Positions 6,960-32,668 of a stretch of DNA of 64,000 nucleotides are shown piece by piece. Below the pieces are notes generated by a model. It was given only the letters and a program-made list of their open reading frames with translations, searched no databases and was not told the DNA's origin. Both the position numbers and the translations under genes were made by a program. Numbering within the stretch: position 1 is the first letter of the stretch; each line of letters begins with the position of its first letter. The DNA lies in the NCBI GenBank assembly GCA_963763505.1, contig CAVXOZ010000009.1, positions 463,596 to 527,595 on the forward strand, written 5' to 3'. The DNA is from an uncultured delta proteobacterium (GTDB taxonomy: Bacteria > Myxococcota_A > Polyangia > Polyangiales > Polyangiaceae).

Positions 6960-7019
6960 GCCAAGTCAGCCCACTCGTTGCTATCGCTATTCTGCCCTCC
7001 CTGGCTACCGAGCCTGGCG

Positions 7020-9406: not shown

Positions 9407-9455
9407 GAGGTCGAACTGACACGACGCGCGCGCCGGCGTCCAGCGCCGGTGTCCC

Positions 9456-12009: not shown

Positions 12010-12419
12010 GCCCTTCGAGATGGCGATCCCCCGATCCGGAGAAGGTGCAGCGCATGCGTCTCCGGGCAAGGGTGCGCCTTTCGCCCGCAGAATTGAACGG
12101 AGTCCCTTCACCTCCCTTACTGTGTCGACCCGTCATGAAAGCGATCAAACGGGGCGAACGTGCGTTCCGCGGCGCTCTCATGGGTCTTCATCGAACAACT
12201 CTACGGGCCCCTACTCCGCAGATCATCGTCCGAATCGGGCATTCGCTGTCCTTTTCGGCCAACCCGGCGATCCACGCGAAGCGCGCCGTCGGCGCACGAC
12301 GAGTTCGCTCCGACATCCGCGGCGCCCCCGTCTGTCTCATTCCCGTCCCTGGGGCTTGCCTGGGACACGCGGACCTCAACGCCGGCGTCTGGTGGGGCAC
12401 TTAGCTTGAGCGAGTTCGG

Positions 12420-17476: not shown

Positions 17477-18871
17477 TTAGGCGGCCGCCACGGAACGGAG
17501 CTCGCCCGCCAGCTCCGTCATCGACTGGTACCGCTCCTCTCGCGGCCGACGCAGGCACTTGAGGATGACGGCTTCGACTCCCGGCGGGACTTCCTCCTTG
17601 AGGCGCGCCCGGAGCGGCAGCGGAGGCTTGGTCATGACGTTGGCGAAGAGAGCCAGGTGACCATTGCCCCCAAACGGGGTGTCGCCCGCGAGGATTTCGT
17701 AGAGCAGAACCCCCATCGACCAGATGTCGGCGCGCAGGTCCACGTCGGTCGCGGCCATCATCTGCTCAGGGGACATGTACGCCGGCGAGCCGACGACCTT
17801 TCCCATGCTCGTGATCCTCGATCCGCCCGCCTCGTCGCCCACGGCGATCCCGAAATCGATCACCTTCACGAGGGGGCCCGCGCCCTGGCCAGCGTCGGCG
17901 AGAAACACGTTGGATGGCTTGACGTCGCGGTGGACCACGCCGAGGGCGTGGGCCTCGGCGATGCCCTCGCACGCGTCGGCGCACCAGGCGAGCGCCTGCC
18001 GGTAGGGTACGCGACCCTGTGTCTCGACGAGGCGGCCTAGGTCGGTGCCTTCGAGGTACTCGAGAGCGAGGTACGGCAGGGCGCCCTGCGTGGCGTCGAG
18101 ATTGCCGACATCGAGGAGCCGGCCGACGTGGGGACTGTGCAGCCGCATGAGGACGCGCGCCTCGCGCACGAACCGCTCGAGAACCTCCTCGTGATTCCGC
18201 CACTCGGGCAAGAGCACCTTGAGGGCGGCGCGGATCCCCCCGCGGTCCCGCGCCTCGAACACGGCACCCGACGCGCCGCGGCCCAGCTCACGGATCACCT
18301 GCCACCGGCCGGCGATCGTCGCTCCCGGCCCGACCGGGAAAGGCGAGGCGGCAGGACCGGAACCACCACCATCGAGTTCGCGACGCAGGCGCAGCTCGCG
18401 CGCGACCTGCCGGGCGAGGCGCTCGAGCGCCGCGAGCTGCCGCGTGGTGAGCGTGCGCGGACGCGTGTCGGCGACAGAGAGCGCCCCGATTGCCGAGCCC
18501 TCCTCGACGAGCAAGGGGACGCCCGCGTAGAAGCGGATGTGCGGATTCCCCATGACGAGCGGGTTGTCCGAGAACCGCGCATCGAGGTGCGTGTCTTCGA
18601 TGACGAGCGGGTGCCGATGGTTGATGCAGTGACCGCAGAACGACAGGTCGCGCGCCGTTCCCTCCTGCTCGACGCCCACGCGTGCCTTGAACCATTGGTA
18701 GTCGGAGTCGACGAGCGTGATGAGGGCAATCTCGGTTCCGCAGAGGTCCGCCGCGAGACGCGCTACTTCGTCGAAGGCTTCCTCGGCCGGCGTGTAGATG
18801 ATGTTGCACGCCCTGAGGAGCGCAAGGCGTCTCTCCTCGTCGTCCGGAATCGGCGGCTCGATCATGGCCAT
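17477..18871 (-). CDS. GAF domain-containing Ser/Thr protein kinase
   Basis: N-terminal GAF (ALITLVDSDYQWFKARVG...FCGHCI). The kinase carries GRGASGAVFEA (Gly loop), ALK (VAIK-like), HRDVKPSNVFL, DFG and SPAYMSPE. Start is probably MAMIEPP at 18871 rather than 18910. Confidence 0.85.
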   Translation of the reverse strand: MAMIEPPIPDDEERRLALLRACNIIYTPAEEAFDEVARLAADLCGTEIALITLVDSDYQWFKARVGVEQEGTARDLSFCGHCINHRHPLVIEDTHLDARFSDNPLVMGNPHIRFYAGVPLLVEEGSAIGALSVADTRPRTLTTRQLAALERLARQVARELRLRRELDGGGSGPAASPFPVGPGATIAGRWQVIRELGRGASGAVFEARDRGGIRAALKVLLPEWRNHEEVLERFVREARVLMRLHSPHVGRLLDVGNLDATQGALPYLALEYLEGTDLGRLVETQGRVPYRQALAWCADACEGIAEAHALGVVHRDVKPSNVFLADAGQGAGPLVKVIDFGIAVGDEAGGSRITSMGKVVGSPAYMSPEQMMAATDVDLRADIWSMGVLLYEILAGDTPFGGNGHLALFANVMTKPPLPLRARLKEEVPPGVEAVILKCLRRPREERYQSMTELAGELRSVAAA

Positions 18872-18968
18872 CCTCGGGTACCACTTCCCGCGATGGCGCG
18901 CGAGAGCCATCCCGACACACTAAAGCCACCACTTGACAGTTTGGAAGGGGCGCCCAATACTCAAGCCG

Positions 18969-19331
18969 ATGCTGAACAATGCCGCGGTCGATCGCGTTTT
19001 CCACGCCCTGGCAGAGCCCACTCGTCGAGCCTTGGTAGAGCGTCTGAGCGCCGGACCCATGTCGGTCAGCGCCTTGGCGCAGCCGTTCGACCTCACCTTG
19101 GCGGCGATTGTGCAGCACCTTCAGGTCCTCGAAGAGAGCGGCGTCGTGCGAACCGAGAAAGTCGGTCGCGTGAGAACGTGCCGCATCGATTCGCGCGGCC
19201 TGAGCCTCGCCGAGCGCTGGCTCTCCGAACGCCGCGCCCTTTGGGAGCGCCGGCTCGATCGCCTGGGCGAACTGCTCGCCGAAGACGACGGGCAGCAGAA
19301 ACCACCGAGCAAGACAAAGAGGAGACCCTGA
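18969..19331 (+). CDS. ArsR/SmtB family transcriptional regulator
   Basis: VFHALAEPTRRALVERLSAGPMSVSALAQPFDLTLAAIVQHLQVLEESGVV is a winged HTH of ArsR type. Divergent from the kinase gene. Confidence 0.75.
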   Translation: MLNNAAVDRVFHALAEPTRRALVERLSAGPMSVSALAQPFDLTLAAIVQHLQVLEESGVVRTEKVGRVRTCRIDSRGLSLAERWLSERRALWERRLDRLGELLAEDDGQQKPPSKTKRRP

Positions 19332-19404
19332 CCGAAACCGCGGTCCCGAGGGCGCGCCGCCGAGGGGGACCGAGATTCGGAACGACACGACCTACCAGGA
19401 CATC

Positions 19405-19629
19405 GTGCCCGAGCGACGCATCGTGTTCGCATACACGATGACCCTCGGTGACAAGCGCATCTCTGCCTCGCTGGCGACGATAGAATTGCGCACTTCAGAC
19501 AAGGGCACGCACTTGGTCTTCACCGAGCAGGGCGCCTTCTTCGAGGGCGCGGATCGCCCCCAGACGCGCGAAGGTGGCTGGCGCGACCTGCTGTCGAAAC
19601 TGGATCAGGAACTACGCCGATCGGCGTGA
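19405..19629 (+). pseudogene. C-terminal fragment of an SRPBCC/AHSA1 (activator of Hsp90 ATPase homologue)-family gene; the N-terminus is missing
   Basis: IVFAYTMTLGDKRISASLATIELRTSDKGTHLVFTEQGAFFEG...GGWRDLLSKLDQEL resembles the C-half of AHSA1-like proteins that usually follow ArsR genes. The frame is open back to 19204 with no ATG. The expected roughly 70 N-terminal residues are absent. Confidence 0.4.
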
Positions 19630-19977: not shown

Positions 19978-21147
19978 ATGCCCAAATTGCGACCCGTCAA
20001 CCGTTACTCGTCGTGGTTCGTGCCGGCGTTTGCGATCTTCGCGGTGGCCTGCTCGGCGCACGACCAAGGCGGCGTCGGTTGCGACGTCGGGGGGCTCAAT
20101 GAATGTGGCGTCTGCTGGCCGGCACTGGGCGACCTGGGCGCATCGTGCGTCGCATCGGACGGCTGTTCTGGCACGAAGGTTTGCTCGGCGGATGGCAAGA
20201 CCTCGACCTGCGCGACGTCGAAAGTCGCGAACGCATGCGGCGTGTGCGGGGGAGCGCCGGTCTCAAGCGTCAACACCACGTGCACCACGACGGCGGGCGT
20301 GGCCGGCTTCTCCGTTTGCGACGACATGGGCGACGGAACGGTATGCGCCAGGACCGTCATCACGATGACGTTCGACGACACGTTCTCCGACACACTACAG
20401 GCGCCACCCCTGCTCGAAGCGCATGGATTTCGTGGCACGTTCTTCGTCAACAGCCCGCGCTTCGATCGCGGCACGCACTACATGACCCTTGGTCAGGTGC
20501 TCGACTTGCAGAGTCGGGGGCACGAGATCGGCGGCCATACGCTCGACCACCCTCACCTTCCGACGCTCCTTCCGAATGCGCAGCGGATCGAGATCTGCAA
20601 CGACCGGGCGAGCCTCCTCGCGCAAGGCCTCGACGTGCGGCACTTCGCGTACCCCTTCGGCGAGGCCAATGACGACACCGAGGCCGCGGCGCAGTTCTGC
20701 AATTACGATTCGGCGCGCGGAGTCGGCGACCTGACCGACGCAGACGGAGGGCGCATCGGCGCCGAGAACTACATCCCTCCCGATCCGTTCAAGATCCGCG
20801 CCGACTCGTCGATCATCGACACGAACACCCTCGCGGACCTGCAGGCGCGGGTGCTCACGGGAGAGCAGACCGGAGGCTGGGTCATCATCAACATGCACCA
20901 CATCTGCGCCACGTGCGGTCAGAATGAGGTGACCGTCGAGATCTTCACGGCGTTTCTCGACTGGCTCGAGGAGCACATCCGAGGAACGACCACGTACGTC
21001 CGGAAGGTCCGGCAAATGCTCCCCGGAAGTACGAAGCCGCCCGTGCTCGTGAGCGGCGCCGTGATCCCCGGCGACGCCAGCGATACGACCACGGAGAGCT
21101 TCTCGCTGCACGGCCCGTTCGAAGTCGATACGGATTCGGAGGAGTGA
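19978..21147 (+). CDS. Lipoprotein polysaccharide deacetylase (carbohydrate esterase family 4, NodB homology) with a Cys-rich N-terminal module
   Basis: Signal/lipobox FAIFAVACSA. NodB motifs TFDDTFSDT and HEIGGHTLDHPHL are present. The stop overlaps the start of the next gene (GTGA). Confidence 0.75.
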   Translation: MPKLRPVNRYSSWFVPAFAIFAVACSAHDQGGVGCDVGGLNECGVCWPALGDLGASCVASDGCSGTKVCSADGKTSTCATSKVANACGVCGGAPVSSVNTTCTTTAGVAGFSVCDDMGDGTVCARTVITMTFDDTFSDTLQAPPLLEAHGFRGTFFVNSPRFDRGTHYMTLGQVLDLQSRGHEIGGHTLDHPHLPTLLPNAQRIEICNDRASLLAQGLDVRHFAYPFGEANDDTEAAAQFCNYDSARGVGDLTDADGGRIGAENYIPPDPFKIRADSSIIDTNTLADLQARVLTGEQTGGWVIINMHHICATCGQNEVTVEIFTAFLDWLEEHIRGTTTYVRKVRQMLPGSTKPPVLVSGAVIPGDASDTTTESFSLHGPFEVDTDSEE

Positions 21148-23120
21148 GCGCCGTGTTCCCCACGAACCCTCACGCGCCGCCCGCCCATGGATCGCTGCTG
21201 CACGCGATCGTGCGCGCCGGGTGTCTTTGTGCGGTCGTCTTGGTCGTTTCGCTGTCGGCGTGTGGCCACTTCCCGGTACGCGAGACACCGCAGGTCCCGT
21301 CGGGCAAGGAATCCCTCTACGCATCGCTCAGCAGCGGCACCATCAAGATTGCCGACGAGCTGCTCGCGAACGACTGGGACATCGGCCCGCGCTCGCCCGT
21401 GGCGCACCTGCCCACCCCTCTCTCGTGGACCGAGGATCCGTTCCAGGACCACTACTGGCGGTTCATCTTCTACAGCCTTCGGCCGCTCAGCAATTTGATC
21501 TTTGCGTATTACACGACCCAGAGGACCGAATATCGCGACAAATTGATCCAAATTCTCGAGAGCTATACGGACATCGATTCGGTTCGCGCGCCCGATGCCG
21601 ACACGTTCGACTATAGGCACGCGGCCGCGTTTCGCGCGCTCATGCTCGTCAACTGCTACGGCAAGCTCGTTCGATCGGGCGACATGCCCGCCGACCTCGA
21701 GCCGAAGCTTCGCGTTTCGATCGCGAAGATAGCTGACTTTCTGCTGGCACCCTACAACTTCGAAGCATCCGACAACCACGCTTTCAACGAGGCGGCCGGA
21801 CTGCTCGCCGTCGGGGCCAACTTCCCCGACCTTCCGAACGCACCGGTGTACCTGCAGTCCGCGATAGACCGGCTCGCGTCCGAGATGCAGACGACGGTTG
21901 GTCCTGACGGGGTGGAGATCGAGAATTCGCCGTTTTATCATTTCTACGTACTGTCGGCCGTCATGCAAGACTACGAATGGGCCAGTACGTACCACGAGGC
22001 GCTGCCCGCCGAGTTCGGCGCTCGAGTGAAGGCGATGCTCGAGTACGCGACGCTCATTCCTTTGCCGGACGGGACCTTGCCGCTCCTCGGCTCGACCGTG
22101 ACGTTCGATCTTCGGCAGCTCGACCCGAGAGTCTACACGGAAGACGACATCGACAGCCTCCCGGATGGTCTCACGAGCGATCAGCACTTCGAGTACATTC
22201 GCACCGCGGGCAAGAGCGGCACGGAGCCTACCGAGCGCAACGTCTCGTTCGCGAGCTCCGGACAAGGCATTCTGCGTTCGGCATTCGGGACGCCGGACGT
22301 GTTCGACGCCCAGACACACGTGACGTTCTCCACGAGCCCGTGGCGCAACAACCATACGCACTACGACACTCTCGGAATCAACCTCTACTCCTCGGGTAAC
22401 GTTCTTCTGTCCGATTCCGGCCTCGGTACGTACGTCGCCGGCGCCGAGCACGATTACTTCTGGTCGACGCGCGCGCACAACACCGTCGTCGTGGACGGAC
22501 AGGATCAGGGATCCGATCCTGCCGCGATCGTGACGACCGGGCTCGTTGCGACCGGCGCCGCACCGTACACCTGGGCTTATCAGTCGGGCGCGCACGGCCT
22601 TTACCCTGGGGTCACCCACAAGCGATCGGTCGTTCTTCTCCAGAAGGACCTGGTCCTCGTGGTCGACGCTCTCACGAGCGTTGCGACCCACGACTACGTG
22701 CAGACGTGGCATCTCGGTGCCGGCTTGCGAGCGGATGTCGAGGGCCTGGACGTCGTCGGTCGAACGGCGAGCGGCGAACCGCTCATCCTGGTACATCAGG
22801 CCCTCACGAACGGCCTCGCACTGATGACCAGCTACGGGCAGGACAGCCCGATGCAGGGGTACCTCTCGCTCACGTACGAGAACAAAGTGCCCAACTGGGT
22901 CCTGGAATACAAGGCGACGGCCCAGACCTCCCGTGCCTTCGTGACGCTCCTCGCCTCCGGGCCCTATGCCGCCTCGACCCCGACCGTCACCGGCCTGGCC
23001 GACGGGACCAGCGCAGATGTCACGGTCTGCGCGGGGGACGCCAAGTACGATGTGTCGATCTCGCAGCAGGCGGCCGCCGGTGAAGCGGTCAGCGTCGTGC
23101 CCTCGGCAAGCTGTCCATGA
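21144..23120 (+). CDS. Heparinase II/III-like polysaccharide lyase (alginate-lyase-like N-domain + Hepar_II_III C-domain), lipoprotein
   Basis: GTG start overlaps the CE4 stop. Signal CAVVLVVSLSACG. DHAFNEAAGLLAVGANFPD...IENSPFYHFYVLSAVMQDY and NNHTHYDTLGINLYSSG are typical of the heparinase II/III family. The antisense 625-aa ORF is an artefact. Confidence 0.6.
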   Translation: MSAVFPTNPHAPPAHGSLLHAIVRAGCLCAVVLVVSLSACGHFPVRETPQVPSGKESLYASLSSGTIKIADELLANDWDIGPRSPVAHLPTPLSWTEDPFQDHYWRFIFYSLRPLSNLIFAYYTTQRTEYRDKLIQILESYTDIDSVRAPDADTFDYRHAAAFRALMLVNCYGKLVRSGDMPADLEPKLRVSIAKIADFLLAPYNFEASDNHAFNEAAGLLAVGANFPDLPNAPVYLQSAIDRLASEMQTTVGPDGVEIENSPFYHFYVLSAVMQDYEWASTYHEALPAEFGARVKAMLEYATLIPLPDGTLPLLGSTVTFDLRQLDPRVYTEDDIDSLPDGLTSDQHFEYIRTAGKSGTEPTERNVSFASSGQGILRSAFGTPDVFDAQTHVTFSTSPWRNNHTHYDTLGINLYSSGNVLLSDSGLGTYVAGAEHDYFWSTRAHNTVVVDGQDQGSDPAAIVTTGLVATGAAPYTWAYQSGAHGLYPGVTHKRSVVLLQKDLVLVVDALTSVATHDYVQTWHLGAGLRADVEGLDVVGRTASGEPLILVHQALTNGLALMTSYGQDSPMQGYLSLTYENKVPNWVLEYKATAQTSRAFVTLLASGPYAASTPTVTGLADGTSADVTVCAGDAKYDVSISQQAAAGEAVSVVPSASCP

Positions 23121-23132
23121 CGCGAACCCCGG

Positions 23133-24428
23133 TCAATCCATCGGGCAGACGTCGGCGCTTCCGATGCGCGTGGGGGGTCTCGGGCCGCATTGCACGACAA
23201 CGAGCGGGTGCGGGTGGGGGTGCGCCCGGTACCCAGGCGGCGGCCCGAGCGAGAACTCCGGCGCAACGCCCCTCAGCCCGCGACGCGCATCGACCATTTG
23301 TCCGGGTGGTTCGAGCTGGTTTCCCCAGATCGAGACGGGGCCGCACCGCTGCGTCGTCTCCTCGGTGAGCTCGACCCCGAGGCGATAACCCCGAAGCGTG
23401 TTGTTCCACACCACGCCCGCGCCGCCCCGAATGCGGATGGCCCAGCCGTCGTAAAACGGCAGGCCGTGGTCTGGCTGCTCGATGAGATTGTCGTGCACGT
23501 CGATCCACTCGCCTCCGACCGCCGATCCGAACTCCGCTCCGTGCGCGTCGATGGCGTGTGCCACGACTCCGCTGGTGACGTAGTTGTTGCGGAAAACGTA
23601 GCGACCGCCCTTGTTCGACGCGATGGCATGACGGCAGAGGGAGAACCGTGAGTCCTCGACGACGGTCGCTTCCGGGATCCCACCGGGCGACTGCTGCCCC
23701 AGGGCGACGCCCGTGAGGGCGTTCGTGCCGTAGACGGCCACGCCGTAGCCGTCGGTCCCAATGGCCGGCTTGTACTCCGCGTAGAAGGAGCAATGATCGA
23801 CGACGCCCCGGCTCGTCCCGTTGGTGCGCACCCCGGCGAATCCCATATGAGCGAAGTAGGAATGGTCGACGCGAAAGTCCTGCGCGTCGTCGAGCAGAAC
23901 GCCGACGTCCTTTCCCCTGGAACCTTCGTCGGCGACGCCCTCGAAGCGCAATCCGGAGATCTCGAAACGGCGCGCTCCAATGACACGCACCAGCGGGCGA
24001 TCGCTTGCGCTGGCCGGAGCCGACACGAGGGTGGCGGCCGAGCCGTCTGCCGTCGATCCCAAGTCCATCGAGCCCGCGCCCGCGCCAAGAAGAAGGACAT
24101 CGTCGCTGCGGACGATGATGGGAGCGTCGACCTCGTAGCGGCCGGCCGGCATGACCACGATCGATGCGGGCCCGGCTCGATCGACGGCCTCCTGGATGGC
24201 GCGCGCGGTAGGCTCACGCACCGTCACGACCGCGCGCCAGCGCCGCGGCCCGACGAGGTAGACGGAGCTCGTGGAGGCAGCCGGCCCCGGGATGCCTTCC
24301 GCCGGTGACATCGGCGGGGGAGCCGCGAACGCACTGCGTTCGGTGCCGGTCGCCGGGCGAGTGCAACTCGACATCAGCACGGCTGCGCCCAGCATGCGCG
24401 GCGCGGGGAACGAGCAGGGCACCTTCAC
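23133..24428 (-). CDS. Secreted right-handed parallel beta-helix repeat protein (pectate-lyase fold; candidate polysaccharide lyase or C5-epimerase)
   Basis: Signal MLGAAVLMSSC. Repetitive xGxxVxxNxF/VxxS beta-helix rungs (VDHCSFYAEY, FRNNYVTSGVVAHAIDAHG, DVHDNLIEQ). Its start overlaps the stop of the upstream OMF-like gene (same operon). Confidence 0.55.
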   Translation of the reverse strand: MKVPCSFPAPRMLGAAVLMSSCTRPATGTERSAFAAPPPMSPAEGIPGPAASTSSVYLVGPRRWRAVVTVREPTARAIQEAVDRAGPASIVVMPAGRYEVDAPIIVRSDDVLLLGAGAGSMDLGSTADGSAATLVSAPASASDRPLVRVIGARRFEISGLRFEGVADEGSRGKDVGVLLDDAQDFRVDHSYFAHMGFAGVRTNGTSRGVVDHCSFYAEYKPAIGTDGYGVAVYGTNALTGVALGQQSPGGIPEATVVEDSRFSLCRHAIASNKGGRYVFRNNYVTSGVVAHAIDAHGAEFGSAVGGEWIDVHDNLIEQPDHGLPFYDGWAIRIRGGAGVVWNNTLRGYRLGVELTEETTQRCGPVSIWGNQLEPPGQMVDARRGLRGVAPEFSLGPPPGYRAHPHPHPLVVVQCGPRPPTRIGSADVCPMD

Positions 24429-25675
24429 GGGGACCCTATCGCCGCCGTCAACGCGCGCACATGCGCGGTCAGATAGGCCTCTTCCGAGCGCATCCGGACG
24501 ACATCGAACCAGACGTAGTCGGCATAGTCCGCGGCCCGGGGAGCGTTCAGGTCCAGCATCGTCTTGGTGCGCTGTTCCAGGTCCGAGCGCAGAGCCACGA
24601 CTTGCCGCAAGCGCTCCGCATCGGCGTCGAGCAGAGATCTGAGCTTTTCGATCGCAACGCGCGCCTGGTCGGCCTCACGCTCGGTCTGGGCCGCCGACCA
24701 TTGCGCGCGCGCGGCCGCGGCACGAGCCTCTGGCGGGCCTTGCGCGAGCCAACCGGTGCTCATGGTGATCCCCACCACGCCGAAGAACGGAAACGGCTGG
24801 TCCGTCCCCAGAAAGCGATCGTACCCGCCCTGGATCGTCAACTCGAAAGCGGACAGGCGGCGCAGCTGCGATTCGACCCGTTCGATCTGCGCCTCGGCTC
24901 CGGCTCGAGTGGCTACGAGGCGATCGACATCGGTCAGGGGCAGGGTCGGCAGATGAAGGCCGGCGAGGTGCTCGCGAGCGTCGGCTTGGAGCTCCCGCAG
25001 AGCGTCCATGCGTATCGTCGCCGCGTCGAGATCCTGCATCGTGGCCTGTCCGATCGCCACGTGTTGCTGGATCTTGTCGACGATCGCTTGCGCTTGGGGC
25101 ATTGCTTGCTGGAGTACGTTCAGTTTCGCGGACCACCCCGACGCCGCGAACGAGTCGGCGTCGAGAGTCGCCAGGGCGCGAATCTGCAGGGCCACCCGGT
25201 ACCGCTGGCACTCTGCGCTGGCGTAGCTCGAGGCGAGCGCACCGCGGTAGAAATTGGTGGGACTGAAGCCAGCGCCCGCGAGCACGCGAGGGTAGGCGGT
25301 CGGCGTTGCGATGTCGGCCGCCGATACACCACCCAGCGTATGGACCGGAATGACGCCTGCCTCGGCGAAGAGCCATGGCGACTTGTCGATCGCGCTCTCC
25401 GACGCCGCGGCCGCGCCGATGAACTCACAATACGCTCGCGACTCGGCTTCCAGCTGCTTCGGCGTCGAGGCTCCCGCCTCCGGTGTGTCGATCGGTCCGA
25501 TCGCCGCGGACGTCCCGAACGAAGACGATCCGGCCCGTGGCGTGGGCTGCGCTGCAGCCGTCGTCGCGACCGCAACCAGGGTCGCGCCGCTGGCCGCAGC
25601 CACCGCGCGCGCGACGACGGCGCGCACGACCCGAAGGCGGCTCCCTCGCAAGCATCCCGGCAGTGACGTCTGCAT
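24425..25675 (-). CDS. Outer-membrane factor-like protein (TolC/OEP family candidate) of a tripartite exporter
   Basis: 416 aa with a signal peptide. Ala/Leu/Gln-rich heptad segments in two halves. The position directly downstream of the HlyD-like gene fits an OMF. No strict motif verified. Confidence 0.4.
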   Translation of the reverse strand: MQTSLPGCLRGSRLRVVRAVVARAVAAASGATLVAVATTAAAQPTPRAGSSSFGTSAAIGPIDTPEAGASTPKQLEAESRAYCEFIGAAAASESAIDKSPWLFAEAGVIPVHTLGGVSAADIATPTAYPRVLAGAGFSPTNFYRGALASSYASAECQRYRVALQIRALATLDADSFAASGWSAKLNVLQQAMPQAQAIVDKIQQHVAIGQATMQDLDAATIRMDALRELQADAREHLAGLHLPTLPLTDVDRLVATRAGAEAQIERVESQLRRLSAFELTIQGGYDRFLGTDQPFPFFGVVGITMSTGWLAQGPPEARAAAARAQWSAAQTEREADQARVAIEKLRSLLDADAERLRQVVALRSDLEQRTKTMLDLNAPRAADYADYVWFDVVRMRSEEAYLTAHVRALTAAIGSP

Positions 25676-25685
25676 TCGGCTCGTC

Positions 25686-26816
25686 CTACAAGAGCAGGGG
25701 TTTTCGTTTCACATGCAGAACGGGTTGCTGCGCCCAGCTCACTTCGCCGAGCTGGAGTTGAACGAGCTCTCCACGCAGCTCGCGCTCGAAGACCGGGTGC
25801 TTTTGCAGAATTTCGCCGTCGAGGAGGGCGACCACCACACCGATTCGAGAGCATCCAAGAACGCCGAGCAGGCGGCACCCATACACCGGGGTTCCAGGGT
25901 GGACTCCGTCGAGGTTCTCGTACGGCGCAAACGCGACCGTCAGGTTCTCCGTGGCTGCCTTGAGAAGCGGCTGGTTTTCGATGGCCGTCAGCATCCGGTC
26001 GTACTGCGCGACCACGGCTTGGTTCGATCGAATGCTCTCCGCGAGCGCGCCTTTCAAGTCGGTGGCGCGCGCCTCGGACACGACGGATTGCAGGTAGTCC
26101 TCCTGCAAGCGAACCAGTTCGGGGCTACCGGCCGTCGCCCCGCCCTTGCCCCCGAGCATCGCCTCGACTCCGGACAGGCTCACGAGCTGGTGCCGTAGCG
26201 CGGCCACGTGCGTCTGAAGCTCGACGCCCTTTTCCTCGAAGCCGTAGTTGTTGCTGGCCATCTCGGCGAACAGATGCTTCGTCGTGAGCATGGTGTCGTT
26301 GTCGATCATGTGCGCGTCGAACAGCTGCTGCACACGTTCGAGCGACAGCTGGGCGAAGGCTTCGTTGGCGGGGCGAATCTGGTCGCTCGCTCGGTCGCGC
26401 TCGCCGTTCAGCGAGTCGAGCGCGTGCAGCTGGTCGCGTACGGCGCCCATCTCGGAGCCAAGGGCCTTCTTCAGCGCAATCTGAAAGGCCCTCTCGCCGT
26501 CGATGGTGCGCTCGGCATCTGCGAGGCGGGCCTTGAGCTCCGCGGCCTGTCCAGCCACGACTTCGCGCCGCGACGATTCCTCCGCGTGACGAGAGCTCAG
26601 GTCCTGCACACGCGGGTCCGCCGCCGTGATGATCATCGGCGCGACCCAGGCTCGGTGTACGAAGTAAAATGCGCACTGCCCGAGGTAGAGCCCCAGGCCG
26701 AGGAGAATCGCGAACAGAATCGCCAAGCCCAGGAATTTGTACGCCGACACGATGACCCGGTTCAGCGGGATCGCGGAGAACGGCGACGGACGGAAGGGCG
26801 TGGTGCGAGCCGTCAT
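25686..26816 (-). CDS. HlyD-family membrane-fusion (periplasmic adaptor) protein
   Basis: Start MTARTTPFRP at 26816 overlaps the GT2 stop (ATGA). One N-terminal TM helix (VIVSAYKFLGLAILFAILLGLGLYL), a long coiled coil and a C-terminal beta domain. The upstream 138 codons of the ORF-track entry are non-coding overlap. Confidence 0.55.
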   Translation of the reverse strand: MTARTTPFRPSPFSAIPLNRVIVSAYKFLGLAILFAILLGLGLYLGQCAFYFVHRAWVAPMIITAADPRVQDLSSRHAEESSRREVVAGQAAELKARLADAERTIDGERAFQIALKKALGSEMGAVRDQLHALDSLNGERDRASDQIRPANEAFAQLSLERVQQLFDAHMIDNDTMLTTKHLFAEMASNNYGFEEKGVELQTHVAALRHQLVSLSGVEAMLGGKGGATAGSPELVRLQEDYLQSVVSEARATDLKGALAESIRSNQAVVAQYDRMLTAIENQPLLKAATENLTVAFAPYENLDGVHPGTPVYGCRLLGVLGCSRIGVVVALLDGEILQKHPVFERELRGELVQLQLGEVSWAQQPVLHVKRKPLLL

Positions 26817-28045
26817 GGGGAGGTTGATCCTGCGAGAACACCGGCGGACGCGGCGTCGGGCCCCGACGGGGGCGTGTGCCCCCGAGTTTCCCAGCTCGAC
26901 GAGTCGAGCGTGAAGAGCGCGAGCGGCGTGTAGAGCACGTAGGTCACCGGCATGATGATGCCGAGCGAGAGAAACCATAGAGGGTGGACGCGCTGCGATT
27001 CGGGCTGATCCCGGACATCGAAGTGATACAGGGTGCCGAGCAGCGCCAGCGTGGCGAAGTGAAAAATGGCGAGTTCGAAGAACGTCCCGCGGACGAGATT
27101 GCTGAACACGACGACTGGATACGACAGGAGCATCGCGAACATCGAGACGTAGTGCAACGTGATGAGTGGATGCCGCTTCCAGATGTGGGTGGCACCGACC
27201 AGGAAGTCGACGATGTTCGACCGACGCCACCGGAGCTGCTGGGAAAAGTACTTGGCGATCGTGTCGGGGGCCTTCGTCCAGCAGATCGCGGCGAGCGTGC
27301 TGCCGGTCCTGTAGCCGGCCTTCACGATCTGATTGGTCAAAAAGCGGTCCTCGCCGTACTTGATGGGCACCCCGAACATCTCGCGTTTCTCGAGAATCGG
27401 CTCGAGCTCGACGAGCACGGAGCGCCTATACGCGGTGAGGCAGCCCGATAGACACATGACCGTGCCGAACGCGCGCTCGATGTTCTTGAGATACTCGTAC
27501 CCGAAGTGGTACTTGATCGCCTGCATCCGGGTGAGCCAGTTCTGGTTGGCGTTCGACACGTTGACGCGACCGCCCACGGCGGCGATCGCGGGCTCCACGA
27601 AGCGTGCGACGAGCTGGCGAATGGCGTCGGAGTTCACGACGGTGTCCGAGTCGACCGAAACGATCAGCTCGGACGTCGCGAGCCTCACCGCGTGGTTGAT
27701 CCCGCGGCGCTTCCCCATGTTGTACGGGTTGCGAAGAACGGTCACCTGCTCCGGCCACCGTTTGGCCGCTCCGAGCGCCCACGTGTAGCTGTCGTCCTTC
27801 GAGCAGTCGTCGACGACGGTGACCTTCAGCTTGTCGAGGGGATATTCTTGCGTGAGCAAGCTCTCGATGGTGTCGACGATCGAGCGGCCCTCGTTGTACA
27901 TCGGGATGACGACCGTCACGGTGGGCTCGTAGCCGGCCACCGTCCTGTCCCAGCGCGATCCGCTGGCTCGCCGGAGGAACATCCCGAGGAAGTACCGATT
28001 GATGAAGACCAGAAGAACGATCAGCGCAATCGGAAAGAGCAGCAT
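26813..28045 (-). CDS. Processive family-2 glycosyltransferase, NodC/hyaluronan-synthase/chitin-synthase-like (QxxRW)
   Basis: Start MLLFPIALIVLLVFINRYF at 28045. Motifs VVIPMYNE, DDCSKDDS, VDSDT, GCLTAYRR and QQLRWRRS with flanking TM helices. This is the hallmark of processive beta-glycosyl polymerases. Confidence 0.8.
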   Translation of the reverse strand: MLLFPIALIVLLVFINRYFLGMFLRRASGSRWDRTVAGYEPTVTVVIPMYNEGRSIVDTIESLLTQEYPLDKLKVTVVDDCSKDDSYTWALGAAKRWPEQVTVLRNPYNMGKRRGINHAVRLATSELIVSVDSDTVVNSDAIRQLVARFVEPAIAAVGGRVNVSNANQNWLTRMQAIKYHFGYEYLKNIERAFGTVMCLSGCLTAYRRSVLVELEPILEKREMFGVPIKYGEDRFLTNQIVKAGYRTGSTLAAICWTKAPDTIAKYFSQQLRWRRSNIVDFLVGATHIWKRHPLITLHYVSMFAMLLSYPVVVFSNLVRGTFFELAIFHFATLALLGTLYHFDVRDQPESQRVHPLWFLSLGIIMPVTYVLYTPLALFTLDSSSWETRGHTPPSGPDAASAGVLAGSTSP

Positions 28046-28367
28046 ATCAAAAACGCCTCGGCAAACTGCGTAACATCCCTCGGGGAACCCCGTACGTGTG
28101 AAGACTGAGGAGGCTCCTCCCAAATGGGTGCGCGAAGGCCGCGCAGCGCCGCGAGGTGCATAAGCGAACTTGACGGGCGGCAAGCTAGCGGGGAGAGCGG
28201 TCCGAACAAGCAAAGTTACTGTGTCGTCTGTGCTACTGGGGGAAGTCGGCGCGGCAGGGCCGTGCGGATCCGGTGCCGCGCGCCGACCCAAATGACCCGC
28301 ACAAGTTGCACGGTCGACAAGACGAGCGGCGCGCAGGTGGTAAGGAGCGGGGCTGGAGCGCATCCCC
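28046..28367. promoter_or_regulatory. Divergent promoter region between the GT2 synthase operon (-) and the UDP-sugar dehydrogenase (+)
   Basis: 322-bp non-coding gap between two divergently oriented starts. Inference only; no consensus promoter identified. Confidence 0.4.
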
Positions 28368-29651
28368 ATGAGCAGCGAACGAATCGGCGTGTTGGGTCTG
28401 GGCTACGTAGGGCTTCCCGTCGCGCTTGCGTTCGCGCGCAAGTTCGAGGGGACGATCGGCTACGACGTGAATCCCGATCGCATCGAGGAGCTGCGCCGCG
28501 GTCAGGACAGAAATCAGGAAGAACCGAGCGCAAAGCTGCTCTCCAGCCGCCTGGGCCTCACCAGCGACCTGGCGGAGCTCCGGGGCTGCACCTTCTTCAT
28601 CGTCGCCGTTCCGACGCCCGTGGATGGGAACAACGTGCCCGATCTGACGCCCGTCGAGCGCGCCAGCGAAGCCGTGGGTCGGGTGCTCTCCCGCGGCGGC
28701 GTCGTGGTGTACGAATCCACCGTCTATCCCGGCGTCACGGAGGACGTCTGCGGTCCGATCCTGGAGCGCGTCAGTGGCCTCAAGCGAGGCGTGGAATTCA
28801 CGGTGGGGTACTCGCCGGAGCGGATCAATCCGGGGGACCCCGATCACAGCTTCGAGAAGATCACGAAAATCGTGAGCGCGGAGGACCCCGAGACGCTCGA
28901 GCGCGTCGCGGCGACGTATGGAGCCGTCGTGGACGCGGGGCTACACCGCGCACCGAGCATCCGGGTCGCCGAGGCGGCCAAGGTCATCGAAAACACGCAG
29001 CGCGATCTGAACATCGCGCTGATGAACGAGCTCGCGCTCGTCTTCGATCGAATGAACATCCGAACCGCGGACGTCCTCGCGGCGGCAGAAACGAAGTGGA
29101 ACTTCCTCCGATTCCGCCCCGGTCTGGTCGGAGGCCATTGCATCGGCGTCGATCCCTACTACCTGACCACCAAGGCGCAGCAGCTCGGGTACCAGCCGGA
29201 AGTCATCCTGGCCGGGCGACGGATCAACAACAACACGGGGCCGTTCATCGCCCAGCGGCTCATCAAGCTCTTCGTTCACGCGAACCTGCCGATCAAGGGC
29301 GCCCGCGTGGGGGTGCTCGGCTTGACGTTCAAAGAGAACTGCAGCGACATCCGCAACAGTCGGGTGCCGGACATCGTTCGGGAGCTCCGGCAGTTCGGGA
29401 TCGAGGCCATGGTGCACGACCCCCTGGTCAAGCCGGCAGACGCGATCCGCGAGCACGGTGTGAAGCCCGTCGCCTTCGAGGAGCTGGAAGGGCTCGACGG
29501 GCTCGTACTGGCGGTCAGTCACAAGTGGTATCTCGGACTTGGGCAGCCGCGCCTTCTGTCGATGCTTCGCGACGGCGGCACGCTCGTCGACGTGAAGAGC
29601 GCGCTGGACCCGGCGAAGCTCGAACGGGGCATCCAGTACTGGAGTCTTTGA
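28368..29651 (+). CDS. Nucleotide-sugar 6-dehydrogenase (UDP-glucose/GDP-mannose dehydrogenase family; TviB/WbpA/WecC-like UDP-N-acetylhexosamine dehydrogenase)
   Basis: N-terminal GVLGLGYVGLPVALAFA Rossmann motif and catalytic GGHCIGVDP (GGxCxxxD). The C-terminal UDP-binding domain is present. Confidence 0.85.
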   Translation: MSSERIGVLGLGYVGLPVALAFARKFEGTIGYDVNPDRIEELRRGQDRNQEEPSAKLLSSRLGLTSDLAELRGCTFFIVAVPTPVDGNNVPDLTPVERASEAVGRVLSRGGVVVYESTVYPGVTEDVCGPILERVSGLKRGVEFTVGYSPERINPGDPDHSFEKITKIVSAEDPETLERVAATYGAVVDAGLHRAPSIRVAEAAKVIENTQRDLNIALMNELALVFDRMNIRTADVLAAAETKWNFLRFRPGLVGGHCIGVDPYYLTTKAQQLGYQPEVILAGRRINNNTGPFIAQRLIKLFVHANLPIKGARVGVLGLTFKENCSDIRNSRVPDIVRELRQFGIEAMVHDPLVKPADAIREHGVKPVAFEELEGLDGLVLAVSHKWYLGLGQPRLLSMLRDGGTLVDVKSALDPAKLERGIQYWSL

Positions 29652-29751
29652 TTTGCACGCGCCGTCCGTTCGGCCGGCGCAGACGAGTCCATAGGTCCAC
29701 AGACCGCCAGCGCAGTCCGAGCCGCCGTCCGCACGACACGACGGCCCGGTC

Positions 29752-30460
29752 TTGGCTCACTTTGGCTCGCCTTCGCTCCATGGTTCCGCAGCGATGAGGC
29801 AGGCATGGTTCCTGCTGGCGTTGACGTCCATGTCTCCGTCGTCTCTCACCCTCCTCGGCACCTACGGCGTGACGCCCTTGGCGGCGCTCGCTCTGATGTT
29901 GGCCGGGTGCAGTGGCGCCAAGATGAGCGACAGCGGTCCTGACGCGACCCCTTCGGACATGTCAGCCAGCGACTCCTCGGACGTCGCCTCGCGGACGTGA
30001 GCTCGTCGGTCGCCGATTCATCGGTCGATGCGTCGGAGGCGAGTCCGCCCGTCTGCACTCAGACCATCGCGGAGGGATGCACCCCGAATCCGCCCTTCTT
30101 GTGGGCCAATGGGAGCAGCGTGGACTTCAACGATTGTCCGCCGACGTGGAACGACGCCATCGCCGTGTGCATCACGTATGCTGGCGACTTCGGCTACCAG
30201 CAGACCGAATGCGGAACCTACCGCAGATGGCACGTGGAGAACGGCGACGTCGGGTGCTCGTACTACTACGACGCCACCACCGGCGATTCTCGTTTCCGTG
30301 TTCTGCGCGGGCTTCATGGGCAACGCGGCCTGTCTCGGAGGTCCCCCGGGCTCCACCGAGCCCCCATGTGCGCCGCTCCAGCTCCAAGACTACCGACCCT
30401 GCGCCGCCGGCGACGAAATGGGAGACGGCGGCGATGAGGGCGACGCGGCGAACACGGACT
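29752..30460 (+). pseudogene. Small Cys/Asp-rich lipoprotein gene interrupted by two apparent frameshifts (near 30000 and near 30290)
   Basis: Lipobox LALMLAGCSGA in frame 1. The protein continues plausibly in frame 3 (SSVADSSVDASEA...CSYYYDATTGD) and then frame 1 again (VFCAGFMGNAACLGGPPG...). Confidence 0.35.
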
Positions 30461-30621: not shown

Positions 30622-31320
30622 ATGGTGGATGAGTTGTTCCTGACTCTGATGGTCGTGGGCTTGGTGGGCCTCTTCATGATGGCATTGCCCGCCTTCAAGC
30701 ATCACGGTCATGTGCACCCCGGCCACGCTGGTCGCGCCGCTCTCATCCGCGGGTCGCCGAGATCGGCCGGACACGCGGGCGGGGACCGGACGGCCGTCAT
30801 GGCCGACGCCGGTGGCGCGGTGAGCGCCGCCAGCGCGGGCCGTGAGATCGCCCCCTCGGACACGAGGCTGGCGTGGCTCCTTCGCTTCGTCCCCTCCCCG
30901 CGCGCTCTCTGCAGCGTGCTGGCCCTTTACGGGGCCTTCGGCAACGCGCTCGTTCATGCCTTCCACATGCCCGTCGGCCCCGCCGTGCTCGTGGCCGCGC
31001 TCCTCGCGCTGCTGGTCGAGCGCCTGATCGTGCGGCCCGTCTGGAATCTGCTGTTCCACTTCCAGGGGCAGCCGAGCTCTCCGCTCGGGGTCCTCGTCCT
31101 GTCCGAAGCCCAGGCGGTGGTGCCTTTCCGTAACGGGCGCGGCATGGTCTCCGTGGTGCGCGACGGTCGCGTCGTGCAGCTCGCGGCGACCCTGCGCGAG
31201 GACCACGCAGGACTCTCCGTGCGTGTCGGCGATCGCCTACGCATCGACGACGTCGACGCGCGGCGCGAGCGCGTCGTCGTCTCGGTCATCGATCACGTCA
31301 TGTTTGCGCAGAAGCCTTGA
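30622..31320 (+). CDS. NfeD-like membrane protein (OB-fold C-terminus), partner of flotillin
   Basis: N-terminal TM helices. C-terminal GMVSVVRDGRVVQLAATLREDHAGLSVRVGDRLRIDDVD is the NfeD OB-domain signature. Confidence 0.65.
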   Translation: MVDELFLTLMVVGLVGLFMMALPAFKHHGHVHPGHAGRAALIRGSPRSAGHAGGDRTAVMADAGGAVSAASAGREIAPSDTRLAWLLRFVPSPRALCSVLALYGAFGNALVHAFHMPVGPAVLVAALLALLVERLIVRPVWNLLFHFQGQPSSPLGVLVLSEAQAVVPFRNGRGMVSVVRDGRVVQLAATLREDHAGLSVRVGDRLRIDDVDARRERVVVSVIDHVMFAQKP

Positions 31321-31333
31321 GTCAGGAGCCCCC

Positions 31334-32668
31334 ATGCCCGAGCCGTCGCTGATCGTTGCCGGTGTCGTCGTCGTCCTCGTCGTGCTCCTGACGATGGGCA
31401 TGATCGCCACGTTCTTGCGCAGCGTGGACGCGGGCGAGATTCTGCTCGCCAGCCGGGGCAGGAACCTGCGCATCTACCGCGGCCCGTGCAAGGCGCTCAT
31501 CGTGCCGGTGATCACGCAGATTCGCATCATTCCCGCGCAGGCCATCAACGTCGACATCGAGATCACCGACCAGACGGCCGACGTGGACCCTTCCGGGCGT
31601 TCGGCGCCCGTGAAGGTCACGGTGAGGGCCTCGGCCATCGTGAGCGTCGGCGAGGACGAGTCGATGGTGAGCACCGCGGCCAACAAGTTCTTCTCGAAGT
31701 CCGGCGGCGAGCAGCTCTCGACGCTCACCGACGTGCTCTCGTCGGCGGGTCGGCGGGCGATCAACCTGCTCAAGCACGATCAGCTCTTCAGTATCCGGTC
31801 GTACACGACGGCGCCGGCGCCCAGCACCGCGCTGACGGTGCCGGGCTCGAGCGACCTGGCGGTGGTGCAGGCGCGCGGCGAGGACGACGAGCTGGCGGTC
31901 ATCATCAAGGACGCATGCTCGCGCGAGCTCATGGATCTGGGCCTCTCGTTCAACAGCTTGAACATCAAGGCGGTGCTCAGCGAGGTGGCCGAGGCGCGGC
32001 GGCGCGAGTCGGCGGCTCGAGCGAAGGCCGACGCCGACGTCGTGCAGGCCCAGGAGGAGCAGCGTGCGCGCATCGCGCAGCTCGAGGCAGCGCAGAAGGT
32101 CAACGATCAGGAGCGCGCGCTCAACATGCAGATCGCCGCCAACGGCGCCGCGGTCGCGAAGGCCGAGGCCGAGAAGCAGGCCGCCGTGCGCGGACAGCGC
32201 GAGGCCACGCTGGGCGCCCAGCAGATCACTCAGGCTCGCGCCGACGCCGAGCAGAACGTCATCCAGCAGGAGGCCGAAGGCCGCGCGCAGGCGGCCCGCA
32301 TCCGGTCCGTCGCCGAAGCCGAGGCCGAGGCGATTCGCATGAAGGCCGTGGCCCTGATGGAGGCGGGCGGGGTCTATCTCGATCTGCGACGGCTCGAGCT
32401 GGCCCCCGAGCTCACCCGGCAGGTGGCCGCGGCCCTGGCCAGCAGCCAGTTCGTCAACTTCGGCACCAGCGGTGGAGCGGGCGGCGATCACGGCGCCGTG
32501 ACCACGGGCTCCGACGACATCCTGCGCGTGGTCCAGACGCTCATGGCGGCGCAGGTCATCACCGGCGGCGGCCTTCGCGCCAATGGCGAGGTGAGCGCGG
32601 TCGCCGCGCCTCCTCCGGTGCCCTCTTCCCCGCCCCTTGCGCCACCCGCGCGGCCGCGCGGGACGTGA
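31334..32668 (+). CDS. Flotillin / SPFH-domain protein (FloT/YqiK-like)
   Basis: ATG at 31334 gives MPEPSLIVAGVVVVLVVLL (TM). SPFH domain followed by an Ala/Glu-rich flotillin repeat region (AEAEKQAAVRGQREATLGAQQITQARADAEQ...EAEAIRMKAVAL). The antisense 539-aa ORF is an artefact. Confidence 0.85.
   Translation: MPEPSLIVAGVVVVLVVLLTMGMIATFLRSVDAGEILLASRGRNLRIYRGPCKALIVPVITQIRIIPAQAINVDIEITDQTADVDPSGRSAPVKVTVRASAIVSVGEDESMVSTAANKFFSKSGGEQLSTLTDVLSSAGRRAINLLKHDQLFSIRSYTTAPAPSTALTVPGSSDLAVVQARGEDDELAVIIKDACSRELMDLGLSFNSLNIKAVLSEVAEARRRESAARAKADADVVQAQEEQRARIAQLEAAQKVNDQERALNMQIAANGAAVAKAEAEKQAAVRGQREATLGAQQITQARADAEQNVIQQEAEGRAQAARIRSVAEAEAEAIRMKAVALMEAGGVYLDLRRLELAPELTRQVAAALASSQFVNFGTSGGAGGDHGAVTTGSDDILRVVQTLMAAQVITGGGLRANGEVSAVAAPPPVPSSPPLAPPARPRGT

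Follow-up and report, generated by a model that had tools for sequence, protein, structure and literature searches.

A putative synthase-dependent secretion locus for an N-acetylhexosamine-based, probably acidic polysaccharide in an uncultured member of the Polyangiaceae

The stretch of DNA analysed here (64,000 nucleotides; the window) comes from an uncultured member of the Polyangiaceae (GenBank assembly GCA_963763505.1, contig CAVXOZ010000009.1), and the element in question is a compact locus at 19978-29651, which an earlier note, made from the sequence alone, had read as six linked elements for the synthesis, modification and export of a glycosaminoglycan-like exopolysaccharide. The explanation that we favour, and hold to be fairly probable, is that its genes specify a secretion system of the synthase-dependent kind, which spans the envelope and exports a beta-linked polymer based on N-acetylhexosamine (HexNAc), probably acidic and made of partly de-N-acetylated HexNAc and HexNAc-uronate. 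Since the window has about 68% G+C, long open reading frames (ORFs) occur in all frames, and genes were called by third-position GC (GC3) and frame plots together with the ORFs themselves and inspection of start codons. By the GC3 and frame plots seven genes between 19978 and 29651 are genuine: a four-gene operon on the minus strand for a family 2 glycosyltransferase (GT2), an adaptor-like protein, an outer-membrane-factor-like (OMF-like) protein and a secreted beta-helix protein; a divergent gene for a nucleotide-sugar dehydrogenase; and a convergent pair for a carbohydrate esterase family 4 (CE4) de-N-acetylase and a heparinase II/III-like lyase. All six elements were thus found where the earlier note had put them, and their linkage is kept in other genomes. 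The first three genes of the operon form a core which recurs in many bacteria and is called the cassette below.

The first gene of the operon (26813-28045, minus strand) encodes the GT2. It matched the Pfam families Glyco_tranf_2_3 (116.6 bits) and Chitin_synth_2 (83.7 bits); its best NCBIfam model was NodC (TIGR04242, 191.6 bits, below the equivalog cut-off of 550), followed by the PgaC/IcaA synthase of poly-N-acetylglucosamine (PNAG; TIGR03937, 121.9 bits, below the cut-off of 422.3), and its best matches in the Protein Data Bank (PDB) were hyaluronan synthases (HAS), Xenopus HAS1 (8smm, E 7e-24) and then that of a Chlorella virus. The motifs DDCS, DSD, GEDR, QQLRWRRS and SWETR are the same in all 11 cassettes compared, which come from four phyla, and one N-terminal and three C-terminal hydrophobic transmembrane segments give the protein the size and topology of NodC and of streptococcal HAS. 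These comparisons place the enzyme in the NodC/hyaluronan synthase/chitin synthase clade of processive GT2 enzymes, as the earlier note, which had pointed out the QxxRW motif, had suggested, and we propose that it acts as both polymerase and inner-membrane translocase. A synthase of the BcsA or curdlan type, which the same note had named as the alternative that would speak against its reading, was looked for by profile search and rejected, as the CelA models gave at most 35 bits and BcsA was absent among the PDB matches.

The second gene (25686-26816, minus strand, 376 aa), whose ATG overlaps the GT2 stop codon in the sequence ATGA, encodes the adaptor-like protein, which crosses the inner membrane once and combines an antiparallel coiled-coil hairpin of about 100 residues with a beta domain at its C terminus. 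Its own sequence had no match in Pfam, NCBIfam or the PDB (phmmer), and because all sequence tests for membership of the HlyD/membrane fusion protein (MFP) group failed, as detailed further below, we set it apart as a new family. In an AlphaFold2 (AF2) model made from an alignment of five sequences, with a predicted local distance difference test score (pLDDT) of 73, a transmembrane segment (18-54) and a short strand are followed by helices 68-169, 173-221 and 232-280 and a beta domain at 294-369. These form a hairpin in which one helix of about 100 residues returns as two of about 49 residues each; the C-terminal beta domain, some 75 residues long, lies close to the membrane, and no pair of lipoyl and beta-barrel domains is discernible. 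A Foldseek search of the PDB with this model returned EmrA first (E 1.3e-4, TM-score 0.25-0.28), with the EmrA of EmrAB-TolC and MacA lower down. Judging from the model, the protein looks and probably works like an adaptor, so that of the HlyD-like adaptor claimed in the earlier note an adaptor-like appearance of the modelled architecture and the overlap with the GT2 gene remain, and membership of HlyD by sequence does not. The family itself is large: an exhaustive search with its hidden Markov model (HMM) found 742 clusters at 50% identity (E up to 1e-3), nearly all of 340-380 aa, with invariant positions that include W57, P60, an AF.PY.N motif, two Cys, GE....HP.F and RG. Three members (P0205, P0226 and P0232) carry Pro/Ala-rich N-terminal cytoplasmic extensions of 200-320 residues, and P0226 (889 aa) in addition ends in a long stretch of helical repeats; such extensions may serve regulation or act as scaffolds, or else result from mis-called starts.

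The third gene (24425-25675, minus strand, 416 aa), separated from the second by 10 nt, encodes the OMF-like protein, which we assign to a small, divergent TolC/OEP type. The protein carries a signal peptide and two invariant Cys, and shows long helices along with two segments that resemble beta-hairpins; its own sequence was without a match in Pfam, NCBIfam and the PDB (phmmer), and the profile of its family returned coiled-coil noise only from the PDB. Five of the 26 aligned homologues matched Pfam OEP (PF02321; best E 6.9e-7), among others the one from Myxococcus qinghaiensis, which scored 23.9 bits in two stretches against a gathering score of 22. An hhalign comparison of the family with Escherichia coli TolC aligned the strand-to-helix motif at E 0.09, which is not significant, and in the fold search the AF2 model resembled CusC/OprN. 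Since orthologues reach OEP and the model resembles CusC/OprN, we conclude from these comparisons that the protein probably belongs to the TolC superfamily, as a short and divergent representative; we propose it as the exit duct. The TolC-like protein of the earlier note is thereby retained at the level of the superfamily, by way of its orthologues and its model, and not by any family match of its own.

To place the cassette among other bacteria, one genome per species of the Genome Taxonomy Database (GTDB) was pattern-scanned with the adaptor-family alignment, which yielded 140 confirmed relatives; 80 loci were fetched and examined, and related loci were compared protein by protein with tblastn. 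A genome scan with the single adaptor-like protein as query gave no match, and the impression from word-indexed searches (5 and 8 matches) that the adaptor-like and OMF-like proteins are near-orphans was rejected as an artefact of sensitivity, given the numbers returned by the alignment scan and the HMM. The adaptor-like gene is present in all 80 loci, with a GT2 gene (33-66% identical to that of the window at the protein level) directly upstream in the 76 whose contig extends that far. An OMF-like ORF follows the adaptor-like gene wherever the contig allows, which makes the core complete in 71 loci; similarity of this ORF to the window protein is undetectable in most loci of Acidobacteriota and Burkholderiales, yet it aligns. 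In all 80 loci, as far as the contigs reach, the three genes are contiguous, mostly with overlaps, and stand in the order GT2, adaptor-like, OMF-like. The range takes in at least four bacterial phyla and covers Myxococcota, Acidobacteriota, Burkholderiales and two metagenome-assembled genomes (MAGs) of Spirochaetales, and the carriers include Myxococcus, Corallococcus, Pyxidicoccus, Archangium, Hyalangium, Sorangium cellulosum So ceGT47, Acidovorax, Xylophilus and many Acidobacteriota of the Terracidiphilus/Sulfotelmatobacter type; the loci of Corallococcus and of most Acidobacteriota consist of the core only. The core is common in Myxococcaceae, Archangiaceae and Sorangium. In agreement with the earlier note, the locus is not of the Wzx/Wzy type; the further suggestion of that note that the arrangement is unusual for myxobacteria had to be abandoned, the core being common there and in other phyla. 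The larger arrangement, of six or seven genes, is met again in a 160-kb JGI contig and in three further loci (L089, L090 and L091), where the flanking genes differ.

Several loci depart from the common layout. In L001 (ENA ERZ25039468 contig_16664) the dehydrogenase, GT2 and adaptor-like genes are identical to the window (compared over 23100-29651), and by tblastn the OMF-like protein is 87% and the beta-helix protein 59% identical, the latter two being called as fragments of 286, 109 and 241 aa; assembly-error frameshifts or a degraded copy are the likely causes. In Sorangium cellulosum So ceGT47 about 1.6 kb (L017:11083-12696) lies between the adaptor-like and OMF-like genes, which are contiguous elsewhere; WbqC-like and methyltransferase genes follow the OMF-like gene, and a CE4 gene stands divergently upstream. 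The cassette is rearranged on plasmid PPGU19_p2 of Paraburkholderia sp. PGU19 (L092), a 1.44-Mb chromid of an insect-associated Burkholderiaceae host, where the adaptor-like gene (6905-7945) is followed after a gap of about 1.1 kb by a TviB-like dehydrogenase gene (9086-10360) and the GT2 gene (11099-12286). Acidobacteriota loci and one myxobacterial MAG carry a large PAS/GAF hybrid histidine kinase gene after the cassette (L049:13293-17784, L037:12598-16779), in L049 followed directly by a sigma-54-dependent response regulator; this kinase may be a dedicated regulatory module, which the window lacks.

Divergently from the GT2 gene, across a spacer of 322 bp (28046-28367) bounded by the start codons at 28045 (minus) and 28368 (plus), lies the gene for a UDP-N-acetylhexosamine 6-dehydrogenase of the TviB/WbpA/WbpO-like type (28368-29651, plus strand, 427 aa). 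The coding-frame signal is lost in the spacer, where the promoters of the synthase operon and of the dehydrogenase gene are presumed to lie; between 17000 and 33000 no Rfam family, riboswitch or other RNA element, was matched. The dehydrogenase carries all three UDPG_MGDP_dh domains of Pfam (N-terminal, central and C-terminal). Its best NCBIfam model was TviB (NF011729), the UDP-N-acetylglucosamine (UDP-GlcNAc) 6-dehydrogenase of the Vi antigen, with 443.4 bits over the full length and the equivalog cut-off of 592 not reached; the general nucleotide-sugar 6-dehydrogenase model TIGR03026 gave 349.2 bits (cut-off 189.8), the N-acetylmannosamine (ManNAc) dehydrogenase model 203 bits and the UDP-glucose dehydrogenase models at most 138 bits. 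In the PDB the UDP-N-acetylmannosaminuronate (UDP-ManNAcA) dehydrogenase 4r16, Cap5O and an NDP-N-acetylgalactosaminuronate (NDP-GalNAcA) dehydrogenase came out on top, and all outranked UDP-glucose dehydrogenases; the other members of its 90% cluster come from Polyangiaceae MAGs and are named UDP-GlcNAc/GalNAc dehydrogenase. By these scores the enzyme is of the N-acetylhexosamine type and not a plain UDP-glucose dehydrogenase, in keeping with the TviB/WbpA-like call of the earlier note, and we propose that it supplies UDP-HexNAc-uronate (UDP-HexNAcA). Among the products which that note had named, hyaluronan and heparosan are unlikely and were rejected because they need UDP-glucuronate (UDP-GlcA), for which no UDP-glucose dehydrogenase is linked to the locus; poly-N-acetylhexosaminuronic acid is the sole named class that fits a dehydrogenase of the HexNAc type.

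Such dehydrogenases accompany the cassette in the window, the JGI contig, Acidovorax, Xylophilus, Paraburkholderia and three further loci (L013, L035 and L037). In Acidovorax and Xylophilus the gene lies inside the operon and its product is TviB-like at 387 bits; in the three further loci it belongs to a ManNAc-dehydrogenase-like subtype, and it is divergent in L013 and L037. HexNAc-type dehydrogenases of two subtypes have been recruited independently to the same cassette, and the dehydrogenase is not a fixed part of the module.

The remaining three genes encode putative tailoring enzymes. The CE4 gene (19978-21147, plus strand, 389 aa) specifies a secreted polysaccharide de-N-acetylase with Polysacc_deac_1 at 65.6 bits (cut-off 23.1), the motifs TFDD and HTLDH (His-x3-His), an N-terminal Cys-rich module and weak best NCBIfam matches to HfsH and NodB. 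The lyase gene (21144-23120, plus strand, 658 aa) starts with a GTG that overlaps the CE4 stop by 4 nt, an arrangement of translational coupling, and its product, of the polysaccharide lyase family 12 (PL12) type, exceeds the thresholds of both Hepar_II_III_N (77.2 bits) and Hepar_II_III_C (91.6 bits). Its best PDB matches are the heparinase III structures 4mmi and 4mmh (E 5e-18), and in the alignment to 4mmi NH falls on NH, SPFYH on SPIYH and HTHYD on H..PD, residues which we take to be the catalytic Asn/His, Tyr-His and His of heparinase III. Because it scored only 95.6 bits against the HepC heparin-sulfate lyase model (NF045573), far below the equivalog cut-off of 700, the protein is assigned to the heparinase fold family and to no particular substrate. 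The last gene of the synthase operon (23133-24428, minus strand, 431 aa), which starts at GTG 24428, overlapping the upstream stop, or at ATG 24395, and whose stop lies 12 bp from that of the lyase gene, encodes a secreted right-handed beta-helix protein. It reached 27.7 bits with Beta_helix, which is marginal, and 21.6 bits with Pect-lyase_RHGA_epim, and its 75% identical orthologue in L090 passed the thresholds of both models (31.3 and 31.5 bits); PDB matches to exopolygalacturonase and pectin lyase were weak, and the strings IDAHG and IDVHDN are present. We propose it as a polymer-modifying or polymer-cleaving enzyme, a candidate epimerase or depolymerase; the earlier note had pointed to the fold of C5-epimerases of the AlgG type, enzymes which carry the catalytic motif DPHD. 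Lipobox-like signal peptides (AVAC in the CE4 protein, LSAC in the lyase, MSSC in the beta-helix protein) suggest that all three are probably lipoproteins. The CE4 and heparinase II/III pair convergent to the operon and the secreted beta-helix protein at its end, both proposed in the earlier note, are borne out by these profiles, the latter more clearly in the L090 orthologue.

Elsewhere in the window (13666-17376, plus strand) the gene for a secreted protein of 1236 aa repeats a 315-nt unit 3.4 times in tandem; the resulting Cys-rich 'GYADCDG.PTNGCETD' repeats, to which the N-terminal Cys-rich module of the CE4 protein looks similar, are followed by RCC1-like repeats, and the antisense frames of this gene are long, high-GC3 ORFs easily mistaken for genes.

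The three tailoring genes occur together only in the close relatives, the JGI contig and L089/L090/L091, where the proteins are 72-86% identical. The pair of CE4 and lyase genes is kept in all of them: a lyase orthologue of 79% identity holds the same position in L090 and L091, and the CE4 gene is syntenic in the JGI contig and L090. The beta-helix gene is present solely in these relatives. CE4 genes are found beside the core in L002, L013, L017 and L037 as well. One might argue that the locus is no functional unit at all, and that a glycosaminoglycan-degrading pair of CE4 and lyase has come by chance to lie next to an unrelated GT2 operon, as the pair is on the opposite strand, convergent to the operon, and is missing from most cassettes. 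We regard this as very improbable, since three independent contig sets, whose outer flanks differ, preserve the convergent layout with proteins that are 72-79% identical, and since distant lineages again have CE4 genes next to the cassette.

Taken as one pathway, the genes suggest the following scheme. The NodC/HAS-type GT2 would polymerise UDP-HexNAc and, in this lineage, UDP-HexNAcA from the TviB-like dehydrogenase, and would thread the chain across the inner membrane; we infer this pair of substrates from the type of the dehydrogenase, its repeated independent recruitment and the presence of a beta-elimination lyase. The coiled-coil protein of the new family would bridge the periplasm, its helix of about 100 residues spanning some 150 angstroms, comparable to EmrA, and would reach the small TolC-superfamily channel, through which the chain would pass the outer membrane, the three proteins presumably forming one complex. 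The three secreted proteins would then tailor or trim the polymer, either within the periplasm or on the cell surface: the CE4 enzyme may strip some of the N-acetyl groups, a step that we include because CE4 genes flank the cassette in five further loci; the heparinase-III-like lyase may cut at 4-linked uronate, for control of chain length or for clearing stalled polymer; and the beta-helix enzyme may epimerise or cleave the polymer. Such a pathway should yield an 'oxidised-chitin-like' polymer that is acidic and has lost part of its N-acetyl groups.

A number of observations weigh against this scheme. NodC, the best-scoring curated family of the GT2, makes short oligomers and not polymers. 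The adaptor-like protein offers no sequence link to known adaptors: none of 28 family members matched the Pfam models HlyD, HlyD_3, HlyD_D23 or Biotin_lipoyl_2 at E up to 1, the family profile found coiled-coil proteins only in the PDB, hhalign of the family against the single sequence of EmrA gave E 0.18, which is not significant, and tblastn against plasmids (E up to 1e-3) found no similarity to MFPs such as BgsB on pSymB, its sole match there being the Paraburkholderia cassette. The AF2 models of the adaptor-like and OMF-like proteins were built on 5-6 sequences (pLDDT 73 and 65), and the fold-search lists for both consist mostly of generic coiled coils. Most cassettes, among them those of Myxococcaceae and Acidobacteriota, are without dehydrogenase, lyase or CE4 genes within 10 kb. 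Finally, the closest relatives L089 and L090, whose GT2 is 86% identical, have no dehydrogenase gene beside the GT2 gene, and L087 carries a 90%-identical copy of the dehydrogenase in an unrelated neighbourhood, so that the adjacency of dehydrogenase and GT2 genes could be partly fortuitous.

The last two points feed directly into a different explanation, in which the product is a neutral GlcNAc homopolymer resembling chitin, PNAG or chitosan, partly deacetylated by the CE4 enzyme, the dehydrogenase is a neighbour serving lipopolysaccharide or a Wzy-type exopolysaccharide, and the lyase-fold protein has the role of a hydrolase or of a binding protein, or is directed at foreign substrates. It would suit the fact that NodC and PgaC, the best curated matches of the GT2, are GlcNAc-only enzymes, that a GT2 joined to a CE4 enzyme follows the logic of PNAG and Nod factor, and that no dehydrogenase gene lies near the GT2 orthologues (57-66% identity) of Myxococcus, Corallococcus and Sorangium. 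We nevertheless judge it unlikely. HexNAc-type dehydrogenases of two subtypes lie in the operon (Acidovorax, Xylophilus, Paraburkholderia) or adjoin it (three MAG lineages), which is hard to credit to chance. All close relatives have the PL12-like protein in synteny, the residues that align with heparinase III have been kept in it, and lyases require a sugar that bears a C5 carboxylate. An acidic polymer containing HexNAc-uronate remains the product that we prefer for the window.

The cassette also leads to two developmental genes of Stigmatella. The gene fbfA is reportedly a chitin-synthase homologue (a NodC homologue) needed for fruiting, as told in work of Silakowski and colleagues from 1996, and mutants of fbfA and fbfB are said, in the titles of their 1996 and 1998 papers, to be blocked in fruiting-body morphogenesis. 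Among the fetched loci, those of Archangium, Hyalangium, two Pyxidicoccus and one Myxococcus have a gene for a galactose-oxidase-like copper-radical oxidase divergently upstream of the GT2 gene (L005, L006, L007, L025, L027 and L030; for example L007:5440-8130, minus strand, with GO-like_E_set, Kelch and Glyoxal_oxid_N domains). In Stigmatella aurantiaca fbfB (STAUR_4011) is galactose-oxidase-like, is needed for fruiting and adjoins a divergent glycosyltransferase gene (PMC3543389). Because the oxidase-GT2 arrangement of the former genera matches this published one, the cassette very probably includes the fbfA/fbfB locus, going by gene arrangement only. The fbf-type loci share with the window the three-gene core, with GT2 proteins 57-59% identical to its own, and differ in that a copper-radical oxidase takes the place of the dehydrogenase and that lyase, beta-helix and CE4 genes are lacking. 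The divergent gene before the synthase may encode a C6-oxidising enzyme in both cases, a dehydrogenase in the window and a C6-alcohol oxidase in the fbf-type loci.

The same link can be turned towards signalling: the GT2 would then make short, NodC-like chito-oligosaccharides for developmental or intercellular communication, as has been suspected for FbfA, and the adaptor-like and OMF-like proteins would be an efflux conduit for small molecules. NodC is after all the top NCBIfam model, the GT2 has its size and topology, TolC-type ducts mostly carry small molecules or unfolded proteins, and the Archangiaceae cassette with its divergent oxidase gene matches the arrangement of fbfB, whose mutants, like those of fbfA, go by the titles cited above as blocked in fruiting. 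Against this, the NodC score lies far under the equivalog cut-off, no acyltransferase or tailoring set of the NodB/NodA type is present at the locus, polymer pathways are where an endolytic lyase and a beta-helix enzyme are typically met, streptococcal HAS is a processive enzyme of equal size, and the solved structures closest to the GT2 are processive hyaluronan synthases. We therefore think such signals decidedly improbable as the product and return to a secreted polymer.

A broader proposition can be put forward tentatively, and we would sooner doubt it than rely on it: the window may be the most fully equipped case of a widespread class of secretion systems, composed of a NodC/HAS-type synthase, an adaptor of the new family and a mini-TolC, which make a C6-oxidised, chitin-like poly-HexNAc-uronate, partly de-N-acetylated and so bearing acidic and basic groups. 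Oxidation at C6 would take place before polymerisation where a UDP-HexNAc dehydrogenase is present (the window, Burkholderiales) or after it by a copper-radical oxidase of the FbfB type (Archangiaceae, Pyxidicoccus). If this is true, the long-unexplained fruiting-body genes fbfA and fbfB of Stigmatella gain a biochemical function, and the cassette offers a testable biochemical handle on these genes, which are needed for myxobacterial fruiting-body morphogenesis. The locus further suggests another synthase-dependent family, common in soil bacteria, with a HexNAc synthase instead of a glucan synthase and its own minimal TolC-like duct, and it bears on the question whether TolC-type channels conduct polysaccharides. 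The acidic, glycosaminoglycan-like polymer predicted for this lineage may be of material or biomedical interest.

The surroundings of the locus have little to do with it. A GAF-domain Ser/Thr protein kinase gene (17477-18910, minus strand) and an ArsR-type regulator gene with an AHSA1/SRPBCC-like fragment (18933-19629, plus strand) lie on one side, and on the other a gene for an NfeD-like membrane protein overlapping a flotillin-like (SPFH) gene (30622-32668, plus strand), together with one for a small Cys-rich secreted protein. The outer flanks differ in related contigs, and none of the flanking genes of the window adjoins the locus there; the flanking genes are unrelated to the pathway, and the boundaries 19978-29651 of the earlier note therefore hold. 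The ORFs 18128-19441, 20919-22796, 24305-25666 and 28124-29797 were rejected as genes, being antisense or off-frame shadows with the wrong GC3 pattern.

In the searchable literature we found no account that presents the GT2/adaptor-like/OMF-like genes as a secretion system, and the three-gene core appears to be biochemically uncharacterised. Few synthase-dependent exopolysaccharide systems are known (those of cellulose, alginate, PNAG and Pel, and an emerging XcsAB/BgsAB-TolC type), and all of them have mattered to work on biofilms and to the production of biopolymers. The class I hyaluronan synthase operons with hasA and hasB resemble the window in a synthase linked to a nucleotide-sugar 6-dehydrogenase and in an acidic, HexNAc-containing polymer; they differ in that HasB is a UDP-glucose dehydrogenase and that, being Gram-positive, they have no outer-membrane apparatus, deacetylase or lyase. 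The PgaABCD system of PNAG and NodC/NodB likewise combine a HexNAc-polymerising GT2 of the same broad clade with a CE4 enzyme, whereas exit is through the PgaA porin or an ABC transporter and neither uronate supply nor a lyase is involved. The alginate system has the same functional cast, with the GT2 Alg8, the MFP-like Alg44, a dedicated outer-membrane exporter, the beta-helix protein AlgG, the periplasmic lyase AlgL and the 6-dehydrogenase AlgD; it differs in its use of GDP-mannuronate, in the 18-stranded porin AlgE with the tetratricopeptide-repeat (TPR) lipoprotein AlgK, in a PL5 lyase and in the lack of a CE4 enzyme, and none of its proteins is orthologous. Nearest in function are two tripartite models, one of them the cyanobacterial cellulose system XcsA-XcsB-TolC, for which tripartite secretion has been proposed (Maeda et al. 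2018, as reviewed in PMC12430437). In the account of that review it too would couple an inner-membrane processive GT2, a coiled-coil protein of the membrane-fusion type and a TolC-type duct, with synthase and adaptor genes often adjacent, and is described with a BcsA-like PilZ synthase, a beta-glucan product, a recognisable HlyD-family adaptor and a shared housekeeping TolC encoded elsewhere; in the window, by contrast, we find a NodC/HAS-type synthase without PilZ, an adaptor-like protein of a new family and a dedicated mini-OMF in the operon. The other, the BgsA-BgsB system for the mixed-linkage beta-glucan of Sinorhizobium meliloti, is an operon of GT2 and MFP genes and resembles the window in this layout, and differs in its glucose polymer, its activation by cyclic di-GMP, the HlyD-family BgsB, an OMF encoded outside the operon and the lack of deacetylase, lyase and dehydrogenase partners. 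In that system mutation of tolC abolishes production and a tripartite complex with TolC has been proposed, its authors arguing that the lumen of TolC could accommodate a glycan chain (PMC13438883).

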